A stretch of 63,743 bases of DNA, filler included, from Diploschistes diacapsis (lineage: Eukaryota): NCBI GenBank assembly GCA_023645945.1. It is 15 parts of 15 records of this genome, joined end to end, with 100 filler letters (N's around TTAATTAATTAA, not from the genome) between each part and the next. Parts side by side here need not be neighbours in the genome. Positions count along the whole stretch, not along the records: positions 1 to 21,627 come from JALAIB010000303.1; 14 more parts are not named here. One strand, given 5' to 3'. How positions within the stretch are numbered: the stretch's first letter is position 1; every line of letters starts with the position of its first letter. A program made the position numbers and the translations under genes. This document shows, one piece after another, positions 1 to 56,009 of the stretch. The notes under the pieces were generated by a model. That model had not been told where the DNA came from. It saw nothing but the letters and a program-made list of their open reading frames with translations, and did not search any database.

Positions 1-1292
1 GAGGGGGAGGTGGAGGGGGGAGGCTGGTCACAGCGCGGTTAACGATGAATCGACTTTCTCCAGTGCACTACCAGCTTAAGCCCGATTCTTCTCAACCCGA
101 GAACGTCCTAAATTCCGATTCGCTCATTCTTACCGTAGGAAAAAATTCCACTTCTAAGTTCCCACAAATGTATATTATCGAAAACAACGAACAGAACAGA
201 ACACAGCAGCAACAAAGAAAAGGAACGACTGTTGGATAGGAGGGGTTGAGAATATCACTCTACGACAAGCCCGCATCGTTCAAGATAACGCGTGTGGCAG
301 CAACACGTTTTCGTCGATCCAAAGCTCGACCACTCGCAGGGATGACCTGCCTTCAGCTCAGCAAAACCCTTCCCTGTCTGTACTCATGGGGGCTCAAACC
401 TCAAGAGACGACGTCTTCGTCTTCGATACAACCGTATCTAACGTCTGATAGTGGGAACTCGCTAGGCATTTGCATTGATTACTGGAGGTCCTGGCATTGC
501 AGTGGTTTATCCTTCTTTCGCTAAGCCCAACTGCGCATCAGCTTTCTTACCATCCTGTCCACTGTCACGGTAAGACTGCCGCCCAATCATCGCATGCCAT
601 GGAAGCGTCATCGACGCACCGAGTTCTGGAATAGAAAATCTACACAACCTACGAAGCATGGTCCTCGTTAACCACCTCTCAGTTCTACTCGCGGCCTCAT
701 ACTCCATTGTTCGGTCCTTTTACGGCCCGTTTCCACCCTATGGCATTCACGGACGGAAGTTGATCCCTAACGGAGAGTTTTCTGTGTCTTAGCATCATAC
801 CACCTCGCTAAACTACCGATCATACGAAGACAAACAGAGAGTCAGAATATCTCTTCTCTCTCGCCAGGGACCAAGAGAATTTGGGGGCATGTTGCCAATT
901 TCATATCGGCATGCATGACCCGTTCTAGGCCTCCGAATCCCAACCTCTTCTCCAAAGTTACGGAATGCACGTATAAGTAAGAAGCAAGATCAGGTACCAT
1001 TTTCCAGATAGCTTGTTGCGCGACGTCCAATCGCTCGGGTCGAGCAGCTGCAGGCCGCACATTGATTTGCGTTTCACGGATTTGTTTCTCGCAGCGCTTG
1101 GGATCTCGCTACGCAGGGTTCTCGTGCTTAGTTCATTTCCTGATTAGAAAGGTCCATGACCATCACATTGGCCTGTCACTTTACTTGATAACGTTCCAAG
1201 CTGGCGTTAAAAGTCGGTCGAGGAGATCTCCTTCTTCCCCCCTTTTCTTGTACCGGACAAGTTTGGTCCCATACGCCCCCTCCAGACTTACC

Positions 1293-2495
1293 ATGATGCC
1301 ATCTCAACCCACAAAGGGCCCCAAACTTCGACAGACGTGCGATCCATGCCGCAAGGCGAAGGTCAAGTGTGACAAAAGAATGCCGATATGCGGTCGCTGC
1401 ATTGCATCCGGGGCTCCTTGTGACTACGGTATCTCGAACCAGGGCGGTCGGTGGAAGGACGGAAAGAAGTTGGGGGGGATTCGTCATGAAACACGGCCAT
1501 CAGTCGACTCAAGTGCGTCCACGAGCGCAGCAGAGGAATCCGGAATGCCCATGGTCTCCGAGTCACCCATTTCCGATCGGAGCTTTCCCGACGCTGCAAG
1601 CGCTGGAATGACACAGCACCCCGCCATCGGTGATCCAGCAATGTTCAGACACTCGTTCCAAGAAAACAATATCTGGGGTTACGACCTGTCCATGTGCCAG
1701 CAGAACGCCTTCACACCTTTTGCAGGGCCAACTCCTCTACCTCCAGCGTCCTCGGCTTTCCCATCGCCCTTATCAAGTGCCAGCTCTTTCTGGCTTCCCC
1801 CAGCTGGCGCTCCAACAAGCGAGAGCGATCAGTCCGACGACTTTATGCAATCTATCATGCCTTCCGCCCTCGATAGGCCAAAGACGTGCACATGCTTCGT
1901 GTCCACTCTGTCCGTCCTCCAGTCTCTACACCAACGATTTCCCCAAGGTGCCCCTGTCCAGCATCCAATGGATCCATCGAATCTCAGCTACACTGCCGTG
2001 CTTGACATGAACGAGCAAGCATCATCCTGCTGTGCTACTATGCTAAGATGTCCCGTTTGTCGAGCTGACGACACGGGTTACTCTTTTATCCTGCTCACTA
2101 CCCTCATCCGCAAGACCCTTACTATGATCGAGTCATGGGTTGCCCTCCCAGCCAACAAGCAACAGCAGCCGCAACAACAACAACAACAACAGCAGCAGCA
2201 TCAGCAAGGTGATGATGGTCAGCAAAGCAACATGAGTCCCACAAGCAGTGGCCTTCCTAGCTCCTACGCCGCCGCGGCACGCGAGGATGACCGCCGACTC
2301 AAGGCAGAAGTCTCACTAATCGGCATCAAGAAGATGGAAGAAATCTCGCTGGAGCTGAGGCTGGCCAGCCAGGGCATCCGTGTGGACTACGACCGGTTGG
2401 CATGCGCGTCCCTTGCGGCAAGTCTTTCTGCGAGGCTAAGAGCAGCGTCGGATATGCTCAGCGTGGAGCTGGACAACAAGGCAAGCATATCTTAG
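1293..2495 (+). CDS. AflR-like Zn(II)2Cys6 pathway-specific transcription factor (~400 aa, apparently intronless)
   Basis: CDPCRKAKVKCDKRMPICGRCIASGAPC is a Zn2Cys6 cluster near the N-terminus. The C-terminal CTCF...CCATMLRCPVC helical region resembles AflR-type regulatory domains. Poly-Q tract at ~2160-2207. First in-frame ATG is at 1293; the ORF-track start at 1062 is a TTG. Confidence 0.85.
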   Translation: MMPSQPTKGPKLRQTCDPCRKAKVKCDKRMPICGRCIASGAPCDYGISNQGGRWKDGKKLGGIRHETRPSVDSSASTSAAEESGMPMVSESPISDRSFPDAASAGMTQHPAIGDPAMFRHSFQENNIWGYDLSMCQQNAFTPFAGPTPLPPASSAFPSPLSSASSFWLPPAGAPTSESDQSDDFMQSIMPSALDRPKTCTCFVSTLSVLQSLHQRFPQGAPVQHPMDPSNLSYTAVLDMNEQASSCCATMLRCPVCRADDTGYSFILLTTLIRKTLTMIESWVALPANKQQQPQQQQQQQQQHQQGDDGQQSNMSPTSSGLPSSYAAAAREDDRRLKAEVSLIGIKKMEEISLELRLASQGIRVDYDRLACASLAASLSARLRAASDMLSVELDNKASIS

Positions 2496-3081
2496 ACAGT
2501 TCCTTGGAGTCGCATTCGAGGTCATCATTTCGCTTTGCTGTTTTTGCTATGGCCGGGCCTTCGACGTGAGGAATCTTTTACCGACATGCTGGCTGTCTGG
2601 CTGATGAGCTGATGTGAGAGTGCTGCGTGGTAGCGCAGCTCATGACTGCACGGTATCAGAAGAGGAGCCCTCCCACTGCCGACTCTCGAAACAGGCCGCT
2701 GTCATCTCATGGTGTTTCAGTCAGATAGACAAAAACATAGACGGAGGCCCTTTTGCCTGGGACGGCGGGCGCAACGGCTGGATTATTTATCATGATTACG
2801 ATTGACGGCTTGTTTTTACTACAAAAATGGCACGTGGGTGATCATAATCATAATCGAGCGGGAACTGGCGGCCATGGGTGTGACTTGCTCTCTGTTCATA
2901 TCATCCAATTGTTCAAAGCTTTGAGCATCTTGGTGCTTGATGTATAATGTTCGCATTTATCTTGTTGAGGCTGGTGACAGATGCAATGCAGTACAGGGTG
3001 GGGTGGTTTCAAGTAAAAGTTCCACAGAACGAGTAGCGATCACATGACCGAACAAGCAGAGTGCTTTACAAAGAATCTTGG

Positions 3082-3177
3082 CTACTACTAGATACTATTA
3101 CTACTACTATTACTGCTGCTGCTGCTGCTGCTGCTACTAACTAATAGTACTACTACTACTACTACTACTACTACTGC
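3082..3177. repeat. Compound trinucleotide microsatellite (TAC)n/(TGC)n
   Basis: Runs of ctactacta... and ctgctgctg... are read directly. Confidence 0.9.
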
Positions 3178-3810
3178 TAAAAAGTGGCTAACGCCATGGA
3201 GGGGCCGGTATGAGTGGAAGCCCGTGATTTACTACTTAACGGTACCTATAGTCGGTATAGTATTACCATTGGAAAATGTAGTATCTGCGTGTACCATTAT
3301 TGTACTTGCAGGCTTTGGTCGGCCAGAACACGACGGAGCAAAAGGATCCCGGGGAGTAAGTAGGACAAGACCCCCTTTTCCGTTCCCTTGGGAAGTCTTA
3401 GCACACCGTGTGGTGTGTGTGGTGTGTGGCGTGTGGTTGCGTGAGGTTTATTCGTTACTGTTACTCTTATTGTTACTGTACGTAGATAGGTAGAACTGTT
3501 CCCTTTTTTCGCTTGCAGCAGTGGGTTGATGCGGCTTCGGTGAGGTCGGAACGGTGAGTTGGGGAATTAGCGATTGGGTAGATACTGGCCATGGTAGTAG
3601 TATGTTGTTGACTGCATCTTTAGATAACATGTAGCTGGATATGGATACATCTAGTAACATAGGGCAGACTGTGAATGATCCCGTAATACCGAATACCGAA
3701 TACTGTGTCATGTTATAGTACCGAGGTACTATATTCGGTATGGTGCCGTGTAGGAGTGCGGGCGTGTAGGACAGTAGGAGCAATAGCAATGATTCCATCA
3801 GATTCATAGA

Positions 3811-3844
<34 letters not shown>
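3811..3844. repeat. (TATC)n microsatellite
   Basis: About 8 tandem TATC units. Confidence 0.9.
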
Positions 3845-6321
3845 CTATTGTAGTTGGATTGAGGCCGCCAGTAGTGGCTGACGCATAATAATCATAAGCT
3901 TTTCTTGCGGCTATCCATCATAGTCCAATCAAAATTTCTCCATTCACTTGGGAAGTTGGAACTCACTTTCAGGTTCCCTTTCCCTAGCCTAACTTACTCC
4001 CTTACTATGTACTACTCCGTTACATGTATACGATTCCCAAGACGGAATGCACAGCTCTCCGATCGGGGTGGTTGTACGCTATCAAGCTAACAAGCTAGAA
4101 GTGACGAACGATGATCCCAGTACATGGGGTGGGGGCCTCTCATTCACACTCACACATCCCCAAACAACGCAAATCCAGATGCTTTTCTCCTCTCGGAATG
4201 CGAAGATGTTACAATTTCATTATCCGTGCCTGCAACTCTGTACCACGTCTGTTTCATTCCGCTGTTTGGCTCAAGCGGCCGAGACTGCTACCTCACAATC
4301 ATGTGAAAATCGCGTGCGAGCATTCAAGAGCCAGAACCACAGTATCGGAGGTGAGGTCGGAGTAGCTGGTACGCCTGGTATGGCTGGAATGGCCTTAACC
4401 ATTTGAGGCCGGACACGGTAAGCCAAATCGTCCCTTTTGGGCAGCGTGCTTTGCACCCTTTCGTGGTTCCTTCGGGGTTGTGAGTCTCAAACTGCACGCT
4501 TTCCATGTGCGCTCGACCCTGCTACTACTCTACCGGTTTCGGATGGATACCGGTCTTTACGCCTACGCGGACATGGGTTTACATTACCCCCCCCCATTGG
4601 TTCTTTGCTTCAATGACGACTGCACCAATTGGTGTCCGTGTACACAGTACTCTATGCTCAACGCGGCCACAGAGATGATGCGAAATTTGCCCCTGGACGG
4701 CAATCTTGGTTGGGGAAAGCATTCTGCTTTGATGTCTCGTGCTTAAACCACACAGCTTATGGAAAACACGAAGGACGAGATTATCTGCAAGAACAGCTAC
4801 AGTGACATGTGCAGAACTCTGCCCTACCCGACTTTCCCCTGTTCGTTGCCCTTGATGCCGCTTCCTTTCAGCCCACCCTCCAACCATGGATACGCTTGAT
4901 AAGCTTACCCACCTCAACTGTTTATCCGCAGAGGCCAATTGACAAGTACCAGTGTCTGGCGTGGCGGTGAGAGCCGGATGAGCTGATGTGAGCATGATTG
5001 ATGGCCTAGTTGCGCGTTATGATTTGGGATGCCAAACCAAGAATGATTTTCAAACCCGACCGTTGGGACTCATCTGCATTGTATATTGGTGCCTTCCCGG
5101 ACGGAAACCGTTGTCAGAATAATTTGAGTGAGTATCCAAGCATAGATTGCCAATCGCTGGGGTGAAGGATAACATTTTCGGCAGTTCACCACAATGCAGC
5201 CCTGCTGCTGCGAGTCACCATGCCGGCTTCATCATGCATGAGCACTGTACTAAATGAATCGGGGACTCGATCCAGTAAGTGGGTCCGAGAAGCGATTAGG
5301 CAGAGTGGAAGTAGAGTCTTTCTAAAGCGGTTTCTCCAAATCGGTCGCCACCGGAGTGACCTCCCCAAACCATAAGGCTGAACTCAAGAGACTCGATCTA
5401 CTAATGTAGCAGGATTGCCGGAAAACCCATGACCGGCTATTCAGGCAACCATCATCATTGGCTGCCACCTCGTGAAGAGGCTCAGAATCAAGCTTGACTA
5501 CAGTTAATCGTGATAGGACTAGTGCATTTGCTTCAGGGTGGGTACCTGAATGGAGGCGGATTCACTTGGCCACTTTTGGGGCCATGTCAAGTGACATCAA
5601 TGCACCAGAAGCACAGAATATGCCATAACATTGATACCATACGCATGGAAATCTATTGACCACGCCGGATATCTATACGCGAAAGCATCGTCTCGGACCC
5701 AAAAGAGACTGGGTTGATCGGCGGTTTCCCAGCGTATGTAGTTGTGAGATCTCGGAATCATATATGCTGACCCTACTAGCTATCTATATGAGTCCTGGCC
5801 GCTCAAACACCAGCGTTGCCGACAATTGACATCTGAGAACGACGTCTATGCTCGTTCCCCGCTCCGAGGCAACATGGTGACCTTCTCAGGCGTTTAAGCT
5901 CTTGGTATCTATTCTAAGCTCGTCTGGCTCTCCGAACAGCTGCTGCTCTGTCCTTGGCATTCAGTCTCCGAGACGTGCAGAGCTGTAATTGTAATATCAG
6001 ATCATACTCTGGCGGCCTTGCAGTGCTCGTGCAAATGCATGACGAGAAGACATGGATACGTTCGTCTTGTCAGAATCAGCTGTTCTCGCGTGGCAGCTCG
6101 GCAGCTTCGTCGATGACCATAGATTAAGGCAAGAAACTATGCTTCCATGATATCGCCACGACCAGGCACAAGGTTGGTACATCTCTCTGGGCTCTCATAT
6201 ATAGAATGACAATACGTTCCCTCATATCACTGCTCAGTACGCTCCTACTTCTCTGCGGTGTTCAGACAGGCATATTCTCCATCCCTCCTCCCATCTTCTT
6301 CCTTCCCCCAAAACCTTAGTC

Positions 6322-9300
6322 ATGGCGAGTACGTCGGTAGATGTCCTCGTGTTTGGTGACCAGGCCGTCGACACCTATCCCTACCTCCGCCAGCTTCTCA
6401 CCCGCAGAGAACATACTGCTGTGCTCTCTTCTTTCCTCAAGCAGGCCACAATAGCTCTCCGTACCGATATCGCATCCTTACATCGATCACAACGTCAAGC
6501 GTTACCTTCGACTCACGACCTTCTCGAGTTTATCGAAGCCTATCGGATCTCGCAAGGCCACAACAGTGCTGTCGGCAATGCTTTACTGGTCATTGCTCAG
6601 CTTGCTCATTGGATAGGGTATGTTGCAACATGGAAGGTGTCGCAGCTTTCGCTAATGGAACCAATCAGCTTGGCTGAAGAGTCGCCCGAGATCCTTTCTG
6701 TCGACAAGCGGATAGTCGGTAATGGCGTTGGCCTCTTATCAGCTGCCGCCGTCTCCTCCTTCTCAAGTCTTCCGCCCTTCCTTCCCCTGGCCGTTGAGCA
6801 TGTCAGAATCGCCTTCCGACTTGGTGTGCAGGTGGATGCGGTGAGCGAGAGGATCTCCTCCTCAGAGGCCGGACAGGCAGGCTGGTCGAAGGTTGTTCCG
6901 GGTTTCAACGAAGAATCCGTAGAAGAGATTCTAGCGGATTTTCATCGGCAGGCGGTAAGGATTTTTCTGTTCCCCGCAGTATCACAGCTGACGCGAGGAA
7001 CAGGCCACTCCCGCACCGAAGTCTGCATACATCAGCTGCATAGGTCCTGCAGGTGTCACAATAAGCGGTCCTCCCGAGACAATCAGCAGCCTCTTTGACA
7101 CGACCATGTTGAAGAACTCGAGACCAACCGAAGCCGAATCATTCGGACCTTACGGTGCTTCCCACTTGTACGATGACATCGCCGTTCGTGCCGTGCTCGC
7201 CTCCACAGACGATGAGGCAACCACCGCAATCGAAGCCGCCAGACCGCAAGCAACGGTCTTCTCCACCTCAGCAGAATCAGAGTACGCCGCAGACTCCTGT
7301 CGGTCGCTACTCGAACAAGTCGTTGCAGACGTGCTCCAGAAGACAGCGAACTCTAATCGAGCTCTGAGCGTGTGCGCTTCGCAGGTCAAGACTTCGAAAT
7401 GCCGCGTTGTGCCAATTGGTCCCTGTTTGGATGCTGAATTAGTAGTGTCGAAGCTACAGGAGGCCGGAGTTGAAAATATCTCGCTTTTCGAAACTGCACT
7501 CGGTGCGGTCCAGAGACGCGGGACAGGTAACTACAAGTCCAGCAAAATCGCCATCGTTGGCATGTCTGGCAGATTTCCCGGAGGTAACGATATCCACGAA
7601 TTCTGGGAGATGCTTCAGAAGGGGCTGGATATGCACAAAGAGGTAAGCGATCGAGGCCCCCCCCAACCCCCGTTCCGCTGTATCCTGTCCTCACCTGCTT
7701 TAGGTCCCCGCAGACAGGTTCGATGCGCGGGCACACTACGATCCGTCCGGCAAAGGCCGCAACATGAGCCATACTCCCTTCGGCAACTTTATCGAGAACG
7801 CCGGCCTTTTCGATCCACGCTTCTTCAACATGTCTCCCCGTGAGGCTACACAGACGGATCCCATGCAGAGGCTTGCGATAACGACCGCCTACGAGGCACT
7901 GGAGATGGCTGGTTACGTAGCCAACCGGACTCCTTCGACGAAGCTGGAGCGTATTGGCACGTTCTACGGTCAGACCAGCGATGACTGGCGAGAGATCAAC
8001 GAGGCCCAGGACGTCGACACTTACTTCATCACCGGCGGCGTCAGGGCCTTTGGACCTGTAAGCAAAGCTTCTACGGAACGTTGAGCAGAAAACTAACGTT
8101 AGCAGGGCCGTATCAACTACTACTTCAAGTTCAGCGGGCCTAGCTTCAATGTCGACACCGCTTGCTCGTCCAGTATGGCCGCTCTGCAATTGGCCTGCAC
8201 ATCGCTTTGGGCCGGCGACTGCGACACAGCCATAACCGGAGGCCTCAACGTCATGACGAACCCCGACATTTTCTCCGGTCTCAGCAAGGGTCAATTCTTA
8301 TCCAAGACTGGCAACTGCCAGACCTTTGACAACGACGCTGACGGATACTGCCGAGGCGACGGTGTCGGGACTGTCATCCTCAAAAGGCTCGAAGATGCGG
8401 AAGCCGACAATGACAACATCCTGGCTACTATTCTCGCTACTGCCACGAACCATTCTGCAGAGGCCATCTCCATCACCCACCCGCATGCCGAGACCCAAGA
8501 GGCTCTCTACAAGAAGGTGCTTGATCAAGCGGGCGTGGATGCTCGAGACGTCGGCTATGTTGAGATGCATGGTACTGGTACCCAGGCGGGTGACAACACC
8601 GAAATGACTTCCGTCAGCAATGTCTTTGCGCCAGCAGAGCGGAGGCGAAAGCCCCACCAGAAGCTCTACCTCAGTTCCGTCAAGGCCAACATCGGTCACG
8701 GCGAGGCTGCTTCGGGTATATCTGCGCTCATCAAAGTTCTCATGATGTTGCGGCACAGCACCATTCCACCCCATGCGGGCATCAAGCGCGACATCAACAA
8801 GACCTTCCCCAAGGACCTGGCCGCTAGGAACGTTCACATTCCCATGGTATCAACACCGTTTCCGCGAGGGGACGATAAGCGCATTGTCTACATCAACAAT
8901 TTCAGTGCCGCGGGCGGAAACACCGCGCTGCTTTTGGAAGATGCGCCAAAGAGAGCAATCAAGGGCGCAGACCCTCGCTCCTCACACGTCGTCGCTCTTT
9001 CAGCTCGTGCTCTGTCCTCGCTGAAGAGCAATCTTCAGCGCCTGGACTCATACCTCCAAGCTCACCCAGACACGTCTCTCGGCAGTCTCTCGTACACGAC
9101 ATTGGCTCGTCGCATCCACCATAATTACAAGATCTCCTTTACCGTTTCCAGCGTCGATCAGCTGCGGCAGGCCCTCTCCAAAGCTGCGGATTCTGACACC
9201 GAGCCGACCTCCACTGCGCCAAATGTCGCTTTCACCTTCACCGGCCAAGGCTCGCATTATGCCAGTCTGGCTGCTGATCTCTACAAGACATCCTTGTCCT

Positions 9301-12300
9301 TCCGTACAGACTTGGACAGTTACAATTCCATTGCCACGTCCCTCGGCTACCCTAGCTTTCTGCCTCTCATCGACGGTAGCGTCTCAGACGTCTCGGCCTT
9401 GTCACCCACTCTCGTCCAGGTCGGCCTGACGAGCGTGCAAATCGCTCTCACCAGACTGTGGACTTTGTGGGGCGTCAAGCCAAGCGTGGTGATCGGTCAC
9501 AGCCTGGGCGAGTACGCTGCGCTCTACGCAGCCGGTATCCTTTCCGTTAGCGATGCCATCTACCTCGTCGGTGAGCGCGCTAAGCTTCTGGAGAAGAACT
9601 GCACGGCTGGTACTCACGCCATGCTGGCTTGCAAGTCCAGCGTGTCTGGCGTACAGCACGTTATCAACGCGACGGGCGCTGAGGTTGCCTGCATCAACGG
9701 CCCTTCGGAGACTGTACTCAGCGGTACCTCTGCCGTCATCGACAGTGCGAAAGAGATGCTCGAGACGCAAGGTTTGAAGGGAACGAGATTGAATGTGCCG
9801 TTTGCGTTCCACTCTTCGCAGGTTGATGCGATCGTTGAGGAGTTTGCTCGGATTGCTTCGGGTGTGACCTTCAACAAGCCCAGGATACCGCTGCTGTCGC
9901 CACTATTTGGTACCGTCGAGACCGACGTCGGCGTCAATGCCGAGTACCTATGCAGACATGCTCGCGAGGCAGTCAACTACCTTGGTGCCATCAACGCTGG
10001 CCAGGAAGCTGGCCTCATCAAGAGCTCCACCGTCTTCGTTGAGGTCGGCCCCCATCCGGTCAGCCTCGGCTTCGTCAAGGCGGCTCTAGGCACATCACAA
10101 GCAGGCGGGCCCTCACTGCGCCGGAACGATGCTGCCTGGACTGCGATTGCTTCAACTGCTTCGCTACTCTACAACAAGGGCGTCGAGATTGACTGGAACG
10201 AATACCATCGTGACTTCCTTTACGCACATGAGCTCCTCGAGCTTCCGTCCTACGCCTTCGCCCTCAAGAATTATTGGATCCAGTACAAGAACAACTGGTG
10301 TCTGACAAAGGGCGACCCTGTTTCCAGCCCGGCCGCAGTATCCCTTCCCAAGCTCTCGACATCGTCGGTCCAGAACGTGGTGCAGGAAGAATATACAGAT
10401 GGCAAAGGTTTGCTCGTCGCAGAATCGGACATTCACCGCGAGGATCTTCTCCCTGCTATCGCCGGCCACGAGGTCAATGGCAACCCGTTCTGCCCTTCAT
10501 CGCTGTACGGCGATATCTGTGTGACTGTTGCCGAGTACATGTTCAGACGGGTGTGGGACTCAAATCCGGAGACACCCCTACCTGGCATCAATGTTCGGGA
10601 TATGGAAGTCCCGCAGGGACTTGTCGCTAAACCGGGCACCGAGCAGATTCTGAAGATCACAGCCAAGGCAGACCGTGCGCTCGACCGTATCGGCTTCTCC
10701 TTCAGCACCGGCAGGACAGAGCACGCGCACTGCATCGTCGACTTTGGCGACAGAGCGGCTTGGGAGATGGAGTGGTCGCGATCCGCATACCTCGTCGACG
10801 ATCGCATCAGGTTGCTGCACGCACGCGCTGAGGAGGGAAAGGCCAATGTTCTCTCCTCCGGAATGGCCTACAAGCTCTTCGAAGCGCTGGTCAACTATGG
10901 CGACACATATCGCGGCATGCGCCGTGTCGTGTTCGACGCAAGGAACACCGAAGCTACTGCCAAGGTCGTCCTCCAGGCCCTCCCAGAGGGTCAAAAGTTC
11001 TCGCTGCCACCGTACTGGATCGACAGCGTGGGGCACATTGGCGGTTTCTGTGTCAACGCGAATGATGAGCTCGACTCCAGGAGCCAGGTATACATCTCGC
11101 ACGGATGGGAATCCATGCGCCTGTCCAGGCCACTTGAGGCGGGCAAGGAGTACAAGACCTACGTGCGCATGCTTCCCGGTGAAGGGAAGGTAGTCGTGGG
11201 TGACGTGTACCTGTTCGAAGGTGAGACCGTGATCGGTGTGTTCGGTGGTCTCAAGTTCCAATGCATCCCTCGACGACTGTTCGAAATGATGCTTCCCAAC
11301 CCGAGTGGCCGCAAGGTCGCCGTCCCAGAACCGGCTCCAGCCACGATTCAAACTACCAGCAAGGTCGAGAAGCGCGACAATGTTGCCAAGATAACGAAGA
11401 GCATTATCGTCAAGCAAGCTACCGCCAGCGTTACGAGCCAGACACTAGACATCGTCGCTGAAGAGTGTGGAGTCGCGCTTTCGGAGCTGGCGGATGGAAA
11501 CTCCTTCGCCGACCTGGGCGTGGACTCGCTCATGCAGCTCGCCATCTCGGGCCGCATGCGCGAGACCCTCGAGTTGGACATCTCCTCGACACTGTTCGTC
11601 GATTACCCGACCATAGGTGCGTTGAAGGGCTACCTTGCACCATTCGAGCAGCCTTCTGCCGCTGGCGCCGTGGAGCCTCTGGAAGATGGTTCTTCTGCCT
11701 CCTCTTCTCCCCACTCCTCGCAGTTCGGAGACGACAAGAGCTCCACCGTGTCCTCACCCAACTCTTCACCACCGGACAAGGAACTCTACTCCCAAGACAA
11801 GGTCTCTCGCGCGGTGGAAGTGATTGCTTCTCAGCGGGGCCTCAAGGTCTCGGACCTCACGTCTGCCCTCTCCGATATCTCATCCACCTCCACCCCAAGC
11901 CAAGTTGTCGGCCCTGTCACAGCCGCCAGCACCACCATCGTCTTGTCGCCAGCGCCGCAGAAGCAAGCTCAGTCCATCATACTCCAGGGCAGCCCGAAGA
12001 CCGCCACCCAGAATTTTTTCCTACTTCCGGATGGCGGAGGAAGCGCGGCATCGTACGTGCCAATCCCGGAGATAGCGAAGGGGACGTGCGTCTTTGGGCT
12101 AAATAGTCCGTACATGAAGACCCCGGAAGAATATCACTGCGGTGTGCCAGGTATTGCGGAGATGTTTGTCAAGGAGATCCGACGGAGGCAGCCGGAGGGC
12201 CCTTATGCGCTAGGGGTATGTTTTTTTTTTCTTTCCTTGTCCTCAATCATACTATCTCTTCATACCACCACTCCCTTGGTTTCAAGTCCTTCGCTAACCT

Positions 12301-12929
12301 AACCCAGGGCTGGTCTGCCGGCGGCGTCATCGCCTACGAAGTCGCCCAGCAACTGCTCAAAGCCGCGCAGCCTGTCTCGCACCTGATCCTCATCGACGCG
12401 CCCTGCCCCCTCATCATCGAGCCCCTGCCCCTGACCCTCCACCAATGGTTCAACGAAATCGGCCTCCTCGGCGACCCCACCGTGCCCATGTCCAAGAAGC
12501 TGCCTTCGTGGCTGCTCCCGCACTTCGGCGCCTCCATCAACGCTCTGAGCACGTATAATGCGCGCAAGCTGATGGATCCGGCAGGCAAGGCGGGAGACAT
12601 GAAGACGGTTGTGATATGGTGCGAGGATGGGATTGTCAAGGAGGAGGGCGATCCGAGGCCGGAGCCGTACCCGTATGGCCACGCGCAGTTTCTGCTGGAG
12701 AGAGGCGAGGATTTCGATTGGGGCGATGGGCTGTGGGATTCCCTGTTGGGGAAGGGGAAGGTGAGGAGCAGAAGGGTGCCCGGGAACCACTTCACGATGA
12801 TGAAGGGCGCGAACGTGAGTTTGCCCCTGGCTACAAAAAGCCGTTTGTTCGTGGGTAGGGCTTCGGCTAATCTTTTTGTCATAGGCTGTGAGACTCGGCG
12901 ACGAGATTCGAAACATCCTCTGTGGATAG
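6322..12929 (+). CDS. Non-reducing iterative type I polyketide synthase, SAT-KS-AT-PT-ACP-TE/CLC; TE resembles T4HN/melanin-type NR-PKS
   Basis: GT-AG introns inferred at 6618-6668, 6955-7003, 7643-7703, 8058-8105, 12216-12307 and 12815-12884. Motifs: SAT VLVFGDQ and [39 protein letters not shown] and AFHS; PT GHEVNG...CPSSLY and YWIDS; ACP DLGVDSL; TE GWSAGG and GNHFTM. Stop TAG at 12927-12929. Confidence 0.95.
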
Positions 12930-14151
12930 AGAGACGGCACGGTGTCGGATGCTGTGGAGTTCCTCGAGCGTGGATCTTTTTGTTTTCTTTTCGTTTTGGT
13001 TCCGCTACATCATCCGTGGACAGGAGCAAGGGCGGCGCGTTTGCCGGATGCCCAATCATGTCTTTTGCAAAGCGTTTATTGTCAGAGAGAGTGCGGTTAA
13101 TGATGTGGTTGCCGCTATCTGAACAGGACGGGGGGGACACAGAGTTGCGATTTTGATTGCATGTACAGGTATCGCATACGTGCGTGGACTTGTTTCGTTA
13201 TCGTTATCGTTATCTGCCGTCGCTGTTGCTGTTACACGGTTTGTATAAAGGCGTCGATAGATAGATAGGTTGCGACAGGACGGGGGGACAGGATATAGGA
13301 TAGGTTAGGTTCCTATAAAAAGAATACAGTTAACAATGCATCACTTTCCACCTTCCGTCTTCACTCTCAACGCCATACCCAACAGCGCTTCCCCGCTGCT
13401 ATCCGCACCTCTGGAATCGCCCGGCCTATCGTCTTGTCCGTTTGATCGCCCAGTTGCCATTGCTCGATGATCTCCCCTCCCGGCATCCCGAGGGGCTCGT
13501 CTCGCCAGAGCCCCTCGTCCTTCCTCCACTCCTTCCCATTCTACCTGCTGTTTTTAGCTTGCCCCTTCCACTCGCCTCGTTCTGGCCTAGCCGTCGAACA
13601 CACCGACCACACTGACGCCCCGCCGGCCGTGGCGCCTGCACTACGCTATGGACGGTCTATTACTAAGCCATCAAACCAGCCTCCGCCGCGCTGCGCACAG
13701 GGTACGCCATAGCTGTCGCTGTCGCCGTAGATATCGTAAAAATTAGGCTACCTCAGAGGCGTGATGGAGGAAAAGATGAGGAGGTTACGAGACGAGATGC
13801 TTTGAGATTGGGGCAGTGCGTCCCATGTCCCACGGGGCGTAAGGAAGTGCGGAAGACGGGGTCCTGGCGCGATATAGAGAAATAGGTTGGCTGGGGGGGG
13901 CGGGCAGAGTCGTTTGGACTAGGGAGGAGGGGAGAGGGACGGTGCGTGCGTTGCTGGCCGGGCTGGCTTTGAAACCTGTGCGGTCTCGCATGTTTATGTC
14001 GGTTTTGGTTCAATACTGGCACGTTCCGGGATCGTTGGGTCTTTTGGCTGTGTGGGCCTAGCGGTACTACACTGGCGCGCTTTTTGCAAGATCACACTTG
14101 AACTGGTTCACCTTACTGTAGTTACATGGATAGGATAGGATTTATTTTCTC

Positions 14152-15482: not shown

Positions 15483-17093
15483 ATGTCGGTTTATCACACG
15501 AGACAAATCCCTGGATTCGAAGATTCACCCTCTCAAATTCCTCCGCCAGGGGTAATCCCCAACTTTTCCGATCCAGAGAGCAAAGCCTTTCAAGCCTATA
15601 TCACCGCTGCCGTGTTGCTTCCCGTTATCGTGGCCTTTGCTGCGGTCCGGCTGTATGCCAAGGTTGTTATCCTCCGTTCCAGAACGAAGGATGACTGTGA
15701 GTCTCGAATCTACATATGATATTACGTGTTGACTTGAGTGAGGGGCATATCCTGTGGCAGTGGTATGGAAGAATTTCCATCGAATCCGACTACCATTGAT
15801 ATATTGTAGGCTTCTGGCATCACCTACATGGCGATGGTCCTTGTGCGTATGTTATCAGCCAAACACACTGAAAGTTACCAGAGAGCTCACAGTCACAGTC
15901 GTACGCTATGGAGGCGTTGGGGTTCATGGCTGGGATTTAAAAATGGGTATCGTGACTGCGGATCAAATGCGGGTCAGACTGTCCCTATAAAGCGCTGCAC
16001 TGTGCTAATATCTTGAAAGTTGGCTCTGGCCGTCGAATCAATGTACGGTCCGTTCCTCTGGCTGAACAAGCTTCCCCTGTTTCTTTTGTTTCTTGAGGTC
16101 TTCGGACGCTTGAGATGGCTCAGGATTCTCACTTGGTTCGGTATGCTCGTTTCTGGTCTCCTGTACATTTCAGGGGGGATCGTGATTGCTGTGTCCTGCG
16201 CTCCAAGGACCGGGACAACCCAGGTGGACTATCTCGACTCCTTTGGCTCCTCGAGTTGCAGCTTCCAAGGAACATCCGTTGATACGTTACTGCCAGACAT
16301 AGTCAACATCACCAGTAACCTGTTCATTCTTGTTCTGCCTATGCCGGCCATCTGGTCACTCAAGCTATCTATACGCAGGAAGATTGGGGTGTCCCTGATC
16401 GTACTTACAGGGCTAAAGTAAGCGTTAAAAGCCCAGAAACAACACCTCAACTGACTAAATCCGCAGCACCGTAGTATGTAGCGTCCTACGCTTTTACTAT
16501 AGAGTACAGCTGAGAAACGGTAACGACTACACCTGGGACCTACTGCCCGTCTATGTCCTCACGTGAGCCGCTCATTCCCATCCGTTCCCATCTCACGCAA
16601 ACCCGCAACTAACCCCAAACCTCACCCCAGCATAGCTGAAATAGCCTGCGGCCTCATAATCCCCTGCATGCCCTCCCTCTCCGTCGTCTACCACCGCAAA
16701 GTCCGCCGCCTCGCCTCGACCTTCACAACACGCAGTAAACACTTCCTCCGTCGCAAGGCCTCGCCAACTGCTTCGGACGAAATACTTGAGGGCGCCAAGG
16801 ATCGCAGGGGTCCGGGCGCTGAGGGAGAATACGAAATGATTGGCGATTCGATAGAGAAGAGTAACCAGGGGCGGGGGCAGGGTCAGGGGCCGAGACCGAC
16901 ATCGTGGCCTGAAGAGAATGTTTGGCCGGTGGCGGCGGAGGAGGAAGAGGACGGAGAACAGGGACAAGGGGAGGGGATGGGGATCAGGCGGACGACGGAG
17001 ATTCTGGTGGTTAGTGGGCCGACGGGATCCGAAGGGGCGGGGTGGGGAAGCCCTGGTGTTTTCGACGGGAGAGCAAGAGGCGCTCTCGCGTAG
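15483..17093 (+). CDS. PTH11-like (fungal rhodopsin-domain) integral membrane protein, no CFEM seen
   Basis: Spliced reading gives PPPGVIPNFSDP, VRLYAK...DDW, GVGVHGWD, DIVNITSNLFILVLPMPAIWSLKL..RKI and EIACGLIIPCMP, which are hallmark motifs of this family. Several short GT-AG introns (e.g. 15697-15742, 15763-15809, 15973-16019). Confidence 0.85.
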
Positions 17094-17790: not shown

Positions 17791-19192
17791 CGGACTCCGG
17801 GGCTGGGCTCGGCGTTGGCGGCGTTTTTCTCGTCGAACAGGTCAGCTTGCCGGCTACCTACCTAGCTTTGGCCTAAACGTGGAGTATATGAAGCCATAAA
17901 TCCGAAAAAATTACCATGTCCTGATATGCTTTGTGATACCAAGTCCTAGAGCTTGGCCGCAAACAGGAGTACCCTCTGTGAGCTGGAGCACATATGACTA
18001 TTTTATCGTGAAGTACCCTGCCATCTCGTCTTTCTCTAAATCGGCGACTTCGTCGAGACGGAGTAAGTATTTTTGTCATATATTCCTTCTCCCTCGCTCT
18101 TAACCCTCCACGCCCAGTGCCCACATCCCAGCTCGAACTCGCCCCATCTGCTTTCCATCATCAACCTTCGCGAACTGGATAGTATATCATCCTCCTCTCC
18201 CTCCACCTGCTCTCCAGCAACGCCCTGATCGATAGGCACAGCAACTCTAATTTCTTAAACTTACGTTCACCTTTGGCTCACCTCAAGCATGCCTTCCCTC
18301 GCCGTCGTCGCTGTCGCCACCCCTCCCTCCCTCTTGCTGCCTGCAGATATAGCGAGCGCACAGGATTGTCCATGATATAGTGGACACCGGATACCGGAGA
18401 ACTGCGTATTATGACCTGGGTTACTTGGGGCTTGAGAGATGTGGAGAGCGGAGGGTATGAGGAGGGTGAAGAAATGGGGGATTTGTTTATGGGATGGTAG
18501 TGCTATGGCGACCAGCGTTAGTGGCGGGAGTGGGGATGAAGGTGGTGATGGTGATGGTAATGGGTGCAGCGATGGCAAGAGAGAAGGGAGTGGGCGGCGT
18601 TTGGTAGAGCTGGGTGGAGGTGGTGCGGTGTATGGGCTGCATCATGAAGTGCTCAGGTCTATCTAGTGGGTTATTATCCTTTTGGGAGGAAAGGGGGCAT
18701 TAGCAGCTTCCATGCAACATCTATTGTTCAAAACCACTGATTTACCTGCGGTGTGAGTTTCGGGGACGAAGGTAAGTGACAGTACTTTGTCGAAACGTGT
18801 TGTTGTGATGAAGAGACACTGATGAGGACATAGGGAACCGTTGCTGCGCCCAAGCATCGATGGATGGTACGCTTCCTAAAGCTTGCTTTTGAGGGCCCCC
18901 CTTTCTGTCCCCATGATTCGTTGGTCATTATAGCTGTAGCTTACAAATATCTCCTAATAAAATCATTACAATACAAACCAACCCACAAACATAGACTCCT
19001 ATACGCAACCCCTAGTTCAATAAGAAGCTACAAGCAGAACACCTAATCTTCTAACACTACCAAACAACCATAAATAACCCAGCCAAATTCAAGTTAACAT
19101 CGTCAGGATTCCATTACCTAATCCCTTGCTCCCATGTTCATTTCCCTTATGGTATCTCTATAAAACTCATATAGATTCGGATTCACCATCAT

Positions 19193-19404
19193 GATGTCTT
19201 GGCCGAGTGGTTAAGGCGACAGACTAGAACCCCGTTGAAAACTTCTGGCGAGCTCGCCCCGTCGCTCGTTCGAATCCCAGATCTGCAAGCTAGCAAGCAA
19301 GCAACTGGCAGATTCGCCAGCGCATGGCTCAAGCTCTCTCAGGGGGATAGATGGGCATAAATCTGTTGGGTTCGCCCGCGCATGTTCGAGTTGTGCAGAC
19401 ATCG
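19193..19404 (+). tRNA. tRNA-Ser(AGA) with a 131-nt intron (19230-19360)
   Basis: Acceptor stem GATGTCT/AGACATC; D arm TGGCCGAGTGGTTAAGGC; anticodon stem ACAGA/TCTGT around CT-AGA-A^A; Ser-type long variable arm GGGTTCGCCC; G73 discriminator; TTTTT Pol III terminator immediately after. Confidence 0.85.
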
Positions 19405-20057
19405 TTTTTATTTTTCCTTCTTTTTGGTCTTGGCGAGGTTTGGTTGGGGATATGTTTTTGGGGTACGTATGTGACTTTAATGGGCTACGCTGTTTTTTCT
19501 ATGGGTAAAAAACTAGGGTTCTTCTGGTAACAACTAATCCTTCTCTCAGCTGGCGTTGGATACGTGATTGTTAAGAAATCCGCACAATCATCTCATTCCT
19601 AATCGGTAAGAATCTAGGTCTATAATGGCTAGGCACCCATCCTGGCGAGGGTTTTGGGGGAAACCTCACATGCAGGACGTTCCTAAAGCGAGGCTACTGG
19701 GTATAGCACCTATTGCTCGTATAATTTCACTTTGTGTGTCTCATGGCCTAAGACTATCATGATAAAACAATAGCTCATACGCTCGGGTCCTGCTGGAATC
19801 AGCGCCTGATGCCAAGACCAGCATATCAGCAGGATTTGCCTGATTTGGTAAGTGTGACTGCGCTCAGCAAGCCCTCTTTTTCCCATGCGGATAAACCCAA
19901 AAATTCTCCACCATAAGGGTCTTGCGCATTGGCTTCGACTTTTAAATCTTCTGGAAATCCTCAGTGGTTCCTCGCTGCAGCATCTCTGGGCGCTTTGTGT
20001 CCTGGATAGAGTACTGCCGGTTTTGATTACGGTCTGTATCTAGAAGCTGCTTCCAAC

Positions 20058-21727: not shown

Positions 21728-22158
21728 TTTTTTATTAGCGGGGGTTATTATTTATAATAAATCGGCGGATAATACTTTCGAGTTCGGTTATCGTAGACTT
21801 ACTCGAATATTTAATTCGATTAACGTTTTAAATTCTCGTCACGAGTGCGAAGATAAAGTAAGTTTTTCGAATATAAAACGCTAGCGTAAAAAAGGATACT
21901 ATTTTATCGAAAATTAAATCTAATCAGGAAGAATTAGATATAGCTTAAATATTTATAAATAAAATATCTCGATTCGAAAAGCTAAAGAAGAAACTATTTA
22001 AATGAAAGGAGGGTATCGTTAAATAATATAGGTGCTAGTTTACCGGGGTTCGGGGACTACTTATCTACACAGCCACCCCCTGACCCTGCCGTGTCTTGGC
22101 AAGCACCTGGGCATTGACCCTGCCGTGGCTTGGCAAGCCCCTGGGCTGGGCTGTCTCA
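21728..22158 (-). mobile_element. LTR-like repeat family A terminus (TGAGACAG...), 34-bp-repeat subfamily
   Basis: Ends ...gggctgggctgtctca at 22158. Homologous to 25577, 29582-29872, 58136 and 59960-60246. Two 34-bp tandem units (22081, 22115). Confidence 0.75.
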
Positions 22159-23199
22159 TTCTTATTTCAAAATTAGATCTAGATTGAATTATTTAAACTA
22201 AAGAATATTCGTTGATTAAAGTCTTAAGGAGTCATATCGCGTTAATCGTTAATAAGTAGGAAACAACCAGCGACATTAAGCTAAGATTATCTCGAATTAG
22301 TATTCTAAAGAATTATAAAGAGGTTATTAATGACCTAATCTTTAAGAAAGAATAGAAAGAAACAATAGAAAAAAAAATCGATTCTTTATTCCTAAATCAG
22401 ACCTAGACTGAACTACCTGAACCAAAGAATACCAATATAATAAGCTTAAGATAGGTATTTAACGTAAAATATAATCTTAATGGCGATATTAAGAGGTTTA
22501 AAACTAGATTAATCGCAAAAAGGTTCTCGCAGCAGAAGAAAATCGATTATAACACGATATTTGTTCTTATTATTCGAGCGGACTTCCTACGTATCTTACT
22601 AACGATTATCGCAGTAAAAGATCTAGAATATTATTAAATAAACGTCAATAATACGTTTACGGAAACGTCGTTAACGCATTAAATCTATATAGCGCCACTT
22701 AAAGGATATAGCGTCCCTAAGAATATTATATTAAAGATTAATAAAAGCTTATACGGATTAAAATAAACAATAAAGAATTAACACGAGAAATACGGTAATA
22801 TAATCCTAAATCTAAGATTTAAAAGATACGACGCCGATCCTTATATTTTCATTTTATAAAATCGAAAGCTATTAATTAATTTATACGTCGACGATATTAT
22901 CGTAATAACACCTAAATTACGAGACGTGAACTAGTTTAAGAAAACCCTCGCTGAACGTTACAAGATTAAGGATCTAGAGGAGATTAAAAAGATCCTAGAA
23001 ATAAGAGTTCAGCGACAACGCCAGAAAATAATTTAGCTGAACCTTGATCAAGAAGTTTCCGCTAAGAAGATACTCGATTAGTTCAAGATGGCAACGGACA
23101 CGTATAAAGATTAAAAGATCTTACTTAATAAATATAGCTACATTAAATAAAGCGACTCGTCTAAATCAACGAATAAGATTTAGTATTAAAAAATAATTA
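22159..23199 (+). mobile_element. RIP-degraded Ty1/Copia reverse transcriptase relic
   Basis: Translates to VFNVKYNLNGDIKRFKTRLIAKRFSQQKKIDY (Copia KARLVARGFSQ..GIDY), KINKSLYGLK and LYVDDII (22881), with many premature stops. Confidence 0.85.
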
Positions 23200-42787: not shown

Positions 42788-43163
42788 TCAAGAAGTAACA
42801 ACCTCCACGACACCTCCACTGCCTAATTCAAACTGCCCTCCTGTGCGGCCATTTGGGAGACATTGCTGCTGATGTGGTCCGCGTAACTCGCGACCTGGGC
42901 ACAAATCAAGCCGCTAGACCCGCCGCAGATGGAGATGGCGGCGTTATTGTGTGACACTAGAGTAGTGCAGTCACTGCCAGAATCATTGGTACTTGGGAAA
43001 TTGCCGCCTTGGCCGTTAAGCTGGTTGATGACATCGGTCACATCCCTGTCGGCGGACTAGCGTCTGAAGTCTGACAAAGGACGTTGCTCTGGCGCTTGTT
43101 CAAGGTCACTGGTGCTGCCAGGGCAAGAGTAGCGGCGATGAGGGTCGGGATCGTCGAGAACAT
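42788..43163 (-). pseudogene. Frameshifted small secreted Cys-rich protein (Ecp2/Hce2-effector-like)
   Basis: Signal peptide MFSTIPTLIAATLALAAP, Kex2-like KR, CQTSDASP, DCTTLVS..AAISIC and LICAQVA. Two single-base frameshifts (~43045 and ~42870) are needed to reach CLPNGRTGGQFELGSGGVVEVVTS*. Confidence 0.7.
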
Positions 43164-53564: not shown

Positions 53565-54833
53565 AATTAACAACGAGCATAAACTGACTTGTTCACCTAC
53601 CAATAGCTTCCGCGGCGACACCGAAAGTGGTTTGTGCTTTTGATTGCTGAATCTGGACTAGGGTCATGATGGATCGCTATTGCCCTTGCATCAACATTCG
53701 TGCGTCAGAACGTTGCAATTACAAGCCAACCTAAAGATTCAACAGCATAAACAGAAATGCTCCGGAGCCTTTGTGCACCTTGAGATGAGACTAATGAGCC
53801 AAGCATGCTAAGCTTCATCGATCCACTGTTGCCCTAAAACAACTAGCGTCTCCATTGACTTTTGTGAGGCAAGATAAATCCCTATCTTGGATGACAGGGG
53901 ATAGGGCTTGTGAAGCGTTAGAATATCCAAATTTACGTGTACCTCTCTGTGTCATGAGTATGTTGTCTCAGATGTAAGCAAAACAGGCTTATGGTCTACA
54001 AGTTACGAGATATTTAGGGACTACAAGGGCAACAATCACACGATTCAAGACCAAACTACGGAGAATGAGGCCAATTCGGGCATTTTGCAACTGTAAGAAA
54101 TCCCTTGTCAATTAGAAATTATTGGCTGGCGGATGCCTTGGACACGAGAAGCTAAGCTCCTAGCAGTATTCGCCTGGTTGAGCAGGCAGCCTTGTCCGAA
54201 ACCAATAGCTGCTCCTTCGTGCCTCTTCCTTGACTGTGTACTCCGAATATACAGCCTTGCCTCTCCTGCTTCTTCAATCTATCCTTCTCTCTATTGTGTC
54301 TTATCTTTTGCTAGCATCCCTCAACCAGCTCTTGTCATTTTTGCAATACAGGTAATGAGTTTTCAATTTGAAGTTATCCCATTCCTTGATTAGCTGTATA
54401 ATTTGAATCCTACTTCAATGGTTTTGAGGCACTTTGGCCGTTGTTACAAGACTTCTTCGAGTTCTCCCAGTTACCTTGATTTTACAACAAACGAAGGGTC
54501 CAATATAGCCCTTTGGCCGTGATGCCTTGGTGCTACCGGTCTACATATGGTAACTACCCCATGCTCAACATCACAGTCACTGGTACCCCTTGTAATATGC
54601 CGAGTACCTATCGGGGCTCCGGCCCTGTTGCTATAGTGGGAATGTTCTAGAACAAGTTAGCCACGCAGCGATCTGCCACTCTACACATGCGAGCATGGTG
54701 ACAGTGGTTACTACGAACAGCTTTCCAGGCCAAGCACCAATGATCCGGCTGGTCGAAACAATGCAGAGATTGAATATACCAAATGTCGTATTCATACTGT
54801 AGAGTCCTGTGGACATGCTGTGGCTCCAACGAC

Positions 54834-54905
54834 AACAAAATGGCGCAGTGGAAGCGCGTCGGGCTCAGAACCCGGAGGACATTGGATCGAAACCAATCGT
54901 TGCTG
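54834..54905 (+). tRNA. Initiator-tRNA-Met-like gene with CAG anticodon (probably degenerate or a pseudogene)
   Basis: TGGCGCAGTGGAAGCGC D arm; GGG/CCC anticodon-stem pairs; ATTGG-ATCGAAA-CCAAT T arm (A54/A60); A1:T72. Anticodon loop is CT-CAG-AA. Acceptor stem has 3 mismatches. Confidence 0.75.
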
Positions 54906-56009
54906 GATTGTGTTTTGCTTTTGTCCTTTGTTCTTTAACAGGGCGCCGGCCCATAGGAAATGCACTGCTACCCCTATGAAAGCCGGTGAAGCCTCCCTCA
55001 CTCCAGAGATTGGGCAGGTAAAGTTCGCTATGTGGAGCTAGGACTGGGATCCGCTTGCTGTACTAGAGCACCTGAAGAGCTCCCTACAGGATGAGCTGAT
55101 GTCGATAGCAAATGATGTCTGTCTCCAGGCAGCCATCATGCTTTTGATGTTTTACAAGGATGTCAGTCGGAGAGTCAGTCTTTCAAGACACAATCTACCG
55201 TGGGCACCTCCCTCTCTGACCCATCAATACATCCTTCAGGAGTGTGTACAAGCCCCTATCAAAATATCATGATGCTGATTTCTGGGGAAAAGGACAGACC
55301 AAACCTGCTGCTAGCAATCCTCACCGCACTTAACCTCAGCCTCAAACAACGTGCTTCGCTCCCTTTCCGCTAACCCCCAATCCAGCTCCCCCTTCCCCTT
55401 CCAAACTCTTCTTACGACCACCCATTAACCCCATCCTGCACGCAACCATCAATCCACACGAACCCCCCCTCACCAGAAAAAAGGGCTGTCCTCATCCTCC
55501 TGAAGGCGCCCCTCCCGCCTCCGGCCCAACCTTCATCACACTAGCCTCGCTTATCTCCCTTCATCTTATCAGCACCCCCGCACTTCTGCACCTCATGACC
55601 TGTACTATGCCTCCTTTCCCCTCGCCACCCCTGAACCGCGGCGCCATGAGCACGGCCTCGTGTATGCCCCCTTGCGAAATCCTGCCTGACCCTCTTCCTT
55701 GTCATCGCTTTCGCTTCGGCTTCGGCTTCTGTTTCCGGGCTGATGCGGGTGAAAGTAGTGGAGGAGGAGGAAAAGGAGGAAGAAAGACGAAGAAGGCATG
55801 CTGCGGGACCGGGGATTATGTGATCGGTCTGTCTGATAGATTGGGCTTTGTGCGGAGGACGAAAGGTTTGGGGGGTTGAAAGAGGTGGGTGATGTGGGGG
55901 ATGGAAGGGNNNNNNNNNNNNNNNNNNNNNNNNNNNNNNNNNNNNNNNNNNNNTTAATTAATTAANNNNNNNNNNNNNNNNNNNNNNNNNNNNNNNNNNN
56001 NNNNNNNNN

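Follow-up and report, generated by a model that had tools for sequence, protein, structure and literature searches.

Positions 1-21627 of the window, i.e., the stretch of 63,743 nucleotides (filler included) of the Diploschistes diacapsis genome that was analysed, represent one contig of a 29 Mb assembly made up of 4361 contigs. On this contig ARAGORN, run with introns on, retrieved a tRNA-Ser(AGA) gene at 19193-19404 on the plus strand, called as Ser(aga) with an intron of 131 nt at position 37/38. An earlier, sequence-only reading had extended the gene to 19193..19410; the tRNA-Ser(AGA) is real, but the gene stops at 19404, and positions 19405-19410 belong to the T-run terminator. The 131-nt intron that had been placed at the canonical 37/38 position lies there, at 19230-19360, immediately after A37 (19229). 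The same contig harbors, at 981-13156, an AflR-type Zn2Cys6 regulator adjoining a non-reducing polyketide synthase (SAT, KS, AT, ACP, TE), in an ascomycete neighbourhood; near 16017 it also carries a gene with a fungal rhodopsin domain. The features of the tRNA locus are the following:

19159..19165, plus strand: TATA-like element spanning -34 to -28 relative to the mature 5' end (read from the sequence; putative function)
19193..19229, plus strand: 5' exon, positions 1-37, with the A box at 19200-19211 and the anticodon at 19226-19228
19230..19360, plus strand: intron of 131 nt at 37/38, predicted to form one long rod (ARAGORN, folding)
19230..19242, plus strand: linker 1, 13 nt; 19231-19236 pairs with 19350-19355, closing the rod
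19243..19286, plus strand: copy 1, a decayed copy of the 3' exon with a broken T stem (alignment to the 3' half of the paralog)
19268..19276, plus strand: what remains of the T loop of copy 1, reading as a perfect B-box core (C56 at 19271)
19287..19302, plus strand: linker 2, which forms the tip of the rod and contains a GCAA repeat (Tandem Repeats Finder, folding)
19303..19347, plus strand: copy 2, a decayed copy of the 3' exon with a decayed B box (alignment)
19348..19360, plus strand: linker 3, 13 nt, without the anticodon-intron pair, the U at -3 lying opposite C32
19361..19404, plus strand: 3' exon, positions 38-73 (U52 is 19383, U61 is 19392)
19405..19415, plus strand: T5-A-T5 polymerase III terminator (read from the sequence)

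The A box, the anticodon arm, the TATA-like element and the terminator are all intact, and the longest T run within the gene is of two residues. Once the 37/38 insert is removed, a cloverleaf with an intact anticodon arm is obtained, as in an intron-containing eukaryotic tRNA gene. The intron occurs once in the genome, which rules out a mobile or repeated insert as its origin; no GT..branch..AG candidate exists within 19193-19404, which rules out a spliceosomal intron. According to the available text of PMC4090602 and PMC10275265, eukaryotic tRNA introns range from 6 to 133 nt, and those of budding yeast from 14 to 60 nt. With respect to the canonical 37/38 intron handled by TSEN and Trl1 (PMC4090602, available part), the position after A37, a length within the 6-133 nt range and the presence of Trl1 in the genome are shared; unlike it, the present intron stands near the top of the size range, is built from two copies of its own 3' exon and has an intronless isodecoder partner. 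The other canonical introns of this genome measure 7-34 nt (12 parsed, with 7 further genes not parsed).

The isodecoder partner, a second Ser(AGA) gene, is intact and lies on contig C3855; a 16-letter pattern from exon 2 has exact matches at two places in the genome, and the flanks of the two genes are not alike. Their exons differ at 6 sites out of 81. In the 5' exon only positions 3 and 4 differ, a double compensatory swap is seen in the acceptor stem (3/70, 4/69), and C>T changes at positions 52 and 61 give U52 and U61. The exonic T loop reads GTTCGAGTT; it lacks C61, as had been noticed from the sequence, and the T stem contains the G:U pairs U52:G62 and G53:U61. C61 is kept in all 71 parseable metagenome matches (73 in total, two not parsed) and, in this genome, in all 30 tRNA genes that could be parsed among 32 ARAGORN calls at non-mitochondrial loci; the two mis-parsed genes possess it too, as judged by eye. 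The computed energy of the T arm is -1.6 kcal/mol vs -5.7 kcal/mol in the paralog, and the probability of the canonical T stem is 0.02 vs 0.70; neither G53-C61 nor a stable T stem was found in the intron-bearing gene. In yeast, variants of SUP4oc at G53-C61 are not functional, and destabilization of the T stem leads to rapid tRNA decay (PMC4117946, available part). Since the G53-C61 variants of SUP4oc are not functional, the mature tRNA of the intron-bearing gene may be useless. Judged from its sequence, this is a spare, weakened tRNA-Ser(AGA) gene, backed up by the intronless paralog. As for Ser(CGA), the sole gene seen in the genome (contig C388) has an A in place of the first D-loop G and, at position 55, a G.

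The same observations bring in the alternative of a once-functional gene that has since become a pseudogene, silent or useless, with U52 and U61, both CpG to TpG changes, as its first hits. Two CpG transitions within one T stem, the loss of a C61 that is invariant elsewhere, the in silico misfolding of the T arm and the existence of an intact intronless paralog would all fit such a fate, but the A box, the anticodon arm, the TATA-like element and the terminator have been spared.

As to the origin of the intron, its 5' part had been described as a degenerate copy of the tRNA's own 3' half, from which an internal duplication had been proposed. The likeness is confirmed: copy 1 (19243-19286) aligns with the 3' half of the paralog with a score of 41, reached by none of 5000 dinucleotide shuffles and, in real sequence, by none of 2126 windows of 60 nt from the contig. 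The duplication is supported as well, but it appears to have happened twice, as a second decayed copy, missed by the earlier reading, is present at 19303-19347 (copy 2), with a period of about 58 nt. Of 33 tRNA 3' ends, that of Ser(AGA) comes out first for both copies: copy 1 has its score of 41 (runner-up 36), and copy 2 scores 35 and 32 when aligned with the two Ser(AGA) halves (runner-up 27). The signal of copy 2 is weaker, its score being reached by 1 of 5000 shuffles and a score of 32 by 8 of 2126 contig windows; the joint score of 76 was reached by none of 1056 contig windows. The columns identical to the 3' half of the paralog are 30/46 for copy 1 and 27/46 for copy 2, which also has a 13/14 ungapped match with exon 2 at 19313-19326. 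Ungapped repeats lie 118 and 58 bases upstream of exon 2, and the three units (copy 1, copy 2 and exon 2) align together; Tandem Repeats Finder retrieved only the GCAA repeat from the intron.

A tandem duplication of the whole gene, the mirror of permuted tRNAs, was discarded, the comparison of the intron with the 5' half giving a score of 17 that 2852 of 3000 shuffles attained. RIP was discarded too, the substitutions of the copies showing no C>T bias, and this lack of a RIP-type bias also runs against the pseudogene alternative. Moreover, differences from the paralog are found at 4 of the 44 sites of the true 3' exon, vs 16/46 and 19/46 for the copies (p 0.005 and 0.0006), which argues that the exon stayed protected as the copies degenerated. 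On this comparative basis, the intron very probably originated by duplication of the gene's own 3' half. A few sites hint at two successive events, with copy 1 nearer to the paralog (C52, C61) and copy 2 nearer to the present exon (U52), and linker 1 is possibly the original short intron. A fungus-like contig from another sequencing run carries a 37-letter insert in its Ser(AGA) gene; thus, both intron expansion and intron gain fit. Reads of that run matched the present gene in pieces of the exons only, and a further run gave no match at all. The boundaries of the duplicated unit are uncertain, because the three linkers are not clearly alike. A scan of the metagenome retrieved 73 matches in 72 loci; 71 continue directly into the 3' half, and none has this intron.

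Intron gain in tRNA genes is treated as an open question in the available text of PMC4090602, which offers transposition or RNA repair, and not internal duplication, as a source. Our literature search, outside of which most subscription papers and supplements lay, retrieved no account of a eukaryotic tRNA intron derived from its own exon, and the available portions of PMC8450103, PMC13578239, and PMC9757828 contain nothing on this point.

The intron has a favourable predicted fold (-49.7 kcal/mol, z -2.72, with 3 of 200 shuffles as good), its two copies pairing with each other into a single rod, the longest helix of which is 7 bp. Of the nested stems proposed from the sequence, cccgtt/gatggg stands (pair probability 0.98-1.0), but ctggcga/tcgccag and atctgc/gcagat have a probability of 0.0, and forcing all three together gives -28.7 kcal/mol. 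An Rfam scan matched the intron to no family, which rules out a known RNA family. When the full precursor is folded, the rod loops out and leaves both the acceptor stem and the anticodon stem formed (mean 0.89 and 0.80, respectively); the rod may hide the decoy halves from exon 1. Neutral decay simulated with the same substitutions and indels yields -37.9 +/- 3.6 vs the observed -49.7 kcal/mol, a value reached in 4/1500 and 8/1500 simulations, or in 33/1500 and 55/1500 when the copies are taken without the outer linkers. A duplicate without any decay would already fold at -50.4 or -39.7, according to the assumed source; thus, the rod is in part a by-product of the duplication. Since its stability exceeds that of simulated neutral decay, the rod has also been kept or rebuilt, either by selection or by palindrome-perfecting mutation, which could mimic selection on the rod.

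A close relative, about 3.5% diverged and represented by contigs of one sequencing run that comprise several haplotypes, possesses the intron, with all 30 bins covered. Its listed intron substitutions are 19236 T>C, 19248 G>T, 19271 C>G, and 19343 G>A; in addition, four letters are missing at 19292, in linker 2, one further intron difference is counted without details, and the TATA-like element has one letter changed (19163 A>G). Among the matches listed, divergence is 4/90 in the intron vs 25/720 in the flanks (p 0.55); in these counts the deeper record was used at overlaps, records 7 and 13 were dropped, and 34 exon bases were taken off record 9. No exon difference appears among the listed positions, which exclude those within 30 letters of contig ends, and the relative's positions 52 and 61, read from depth bins, fit several solutions. 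At such a divergence few exon differences are expected, so that their absence is a weak point against the pseudogene alternative, and the drift of the relative's intron and B box is a point in its favour; on the whole, we regard a pseudogene as unlikely.

The rod is retained in the relative (-45.9 kcal/mol). The change 19236 T>C makes a U:G pair C:G; overall, two of the four listed substitutions turn G:U into Watson-Crick pairs and two break pairs. Their net effect on the rod is -0.4, vs +4.6 for random changes; an effect as gentle was reached by 13.5% of 1500 random sets and is not significant. The relative's letters at 19248 and 19343 are those of the tRNA, in a comparison that has no outgroup and leaves the direction of change unpolarised. 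As for the covariation of the intron stems that might have been expected, this one relative keeps the rod, but its sequence drifts like the flanks and no two-sided change is present.

The B-box core GTTCGAATC, noticed in the intron at 19268-19276, is indeed there and corresponds to the T loop of copy 1. The GTTCRANNC core is not rare in itself (11 in the window vs 16 expected). It lies 56 bp from the A box vs 172 bp for the U61 exonic box, and is thus within the 31-93 bp range of yeast reported in the available text of PMC11724288, according to which TFIIIC contacts the template-strand G56 and G61. Compared with the type II polymerase III promoter (PMC11724288, available part), the locus shares an intact A box and an intronic B-box core at a normal distance; it differs in having two candidate B boxes, the exonic one being far off and without C61. 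Copy 1 retains 7/7 B-box consensus positions vs 23/39 other columns (p 0.038, marginal and inflated by the alignment anchoring on the box), and the box of copy 2 has decayed. In the relative, 19271 C>G is C56G in the intronic box; the core is not kept in this one haplotype, the best covered, of one relative (contig depth 53, flanks ~90).

These data bear on a rather unlikely alternative, a division of labour in which the near B box of copy 1 would have kept the promoter job, freeing the exonic box to lose C61 while the RNA still paired. The full retention of the box in copy 1 next to its decay in copy 2, the short distance to the A box, the TFIIIC contacts at G56 and G61, and the loss, only here, of a C61 present in all the parsed genes speak for it; C56G in the relative, the absence there of any listed exon difference outside the 30 letters next to contig ends, and the inflated p value tell against it. 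Furthermore, a C>T change of a stem C always gives G:U, so that the preserved wobble is no sign of selection. We hold just as tentatively its wider form, in which the jobs were split after the tail duplication, the intronic copy serving as the TFIIIC promoter and the distal exon RNA structure only, with a selected rod hiding the copies. The proposal that the intron supplies a TFIIIC promoter element stands in part: with a perfect core at 56 bp, use of the intronic box by TFIIIC in this genome is plausible, but maintenance by selection is doubtful, because the relative has C56G and the intron diverges like the flanks. Most likely, the intronic B box is a leftover of the tail duplication. A B box within an intron, a spliceosomal one, is present in the U6 gene of fission yeast.

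Concerning the fate of the intron, its release as a circular RNA, also suggested earlier, is not supported; a circle is unlikely because the genome has Trl1 and a search for RtcB was negative (PF01139 gave 0 matches, with a control found in 10/14, in an assembly that may be incomplete). The tRNA introns of budding yeast are linear and mostly destroyed (PMC4536317, PMC10275265, available parts). The available text of PMC10485636 presents the anticodon-intron base pair as a general rule, critical for TSEN. The pair of position 32 with intron -3 is absent here; its absence was dropped as a proof of a dead gene, 9 of the 12 other parsed introns (7 genes not parsed) being without it.

Two Dicer genes are present in the genome, and a further alternative sees the rod as the product, the tRNA body being merely a promoter and processing scaffold for a Dicer-cut hairpin or a stable RNA. 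A known case is Drosophila tric31905, a 113-nt tRNA-Tyr intron that is long and double-stranded, as here, and gives phased small RNAs (PMC4536317, available part). That intron shows compensatory changes across species and is circularised by RtcB, whereas in the present genome RtcB was not found and, between this fungus and its relative, the rod is kept and its sequence is not. A stability above simulated neutral decay and a weak T arm that would doom the tRNA agree with such a product, but the intron diverges like its flanks among the matches listed, the helices do not exceed 7 bp, and an Rfam match is absent; we consider this alternative very unlikely.

The explanation that we prefer, and in which we would place about half of our confidence, is that of a spare Ser(AGA) gene whose intron was inflated by two tandem duplications, with paired inner copies and a linear intron that is degraded. 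The duplicated unit of about 58 nt would comprise a short linker and the 3' exon, without the terminator; polymerase III would read through the three units to the single T run, and the outermost unit would work as the exon. The inner copies would lose sequence and stay paired together, and these decoy 3' halves would be kept off the 5' exon; the cloverleaf could form, the splicing endonuclease and Trl1 would make the tRNA, and the intron would leave as a linear RNA to be then degraded. The exons would have been under selection for most of the time, the gene being now weak (U52, U61) with the paralog as a backup; the intronic B box would be what is left of a T loop, possibly used by TFIIIC in this genome but not firmly maintained.

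The intron sequence itself reveals its source, the gene's own 3' exon copied twice, with an intronless sister gene in the same genome. A simple mechanism of intron growth becomes testable genome-wide, by comparing long tRNA introns with their own exons, and the gene represents a natural two-B-box case for promoter tests. If the job-splitting reading were true, the locus would show, caught in the act, a route for the birth or lengthening of eukaryotic tRNA introns. The impact is moderate, since it concerns one spare gene, possibly dying, in one fungus.

Other tRNA loci of this genome carry inserts of a different kind, which in three genes are of the spliceosomal type. The tRNA-Gln(CTG) gene on contig C668 (~42879-42997, minus strand) has a 47-nt spliceosomal-type insert after position 23 (GTAAGT, CTAAC, TAG); when it is removed, ARAGORN calls a 72-nt Gln(ctg), the sole gene found with the exact D-arm motif. 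On contig C53, a tRNA-Leu(TAG) gene (from ~1546, plus strand) has, besides its canonical intron, a GT..AG insert of 50 nt within the T stem, with no ARAGORN call before removal of the insert and a Leu(tag) call after it. A Leu-type tRNA on contig C1458 (~22120-22260, minus strand) has positions 33 and 34 separated by an insert of 50 nt (GT..CTAAC..TAG); after its removal, a TAA anticodon (by eye), a short canonical intron and a 31:39 mismatch are seen, and ARAGORN misplaces the anticodon. A Thr-like gene (C3557:33050-33222), for which the ARAGORN call is not clean, has a long canonical intron and an insert with a GTTCGT start, a CTGAC branch-like motif and, by eye, an apparent AT rather than AG end. 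In the window, the Leu(CAG) called by ARAGORN at 54833-54906 nearly duplicates the initiator Met gene, but its anticodon is CAG and its acceptor stem is damaged; it is probably a pseudogene. Finally, contigs C731 and C1017 harbor AT-rich, decayed tRNA-like copies within AT-rich repeats, resembling RIP-hit tRNA-derived elements.
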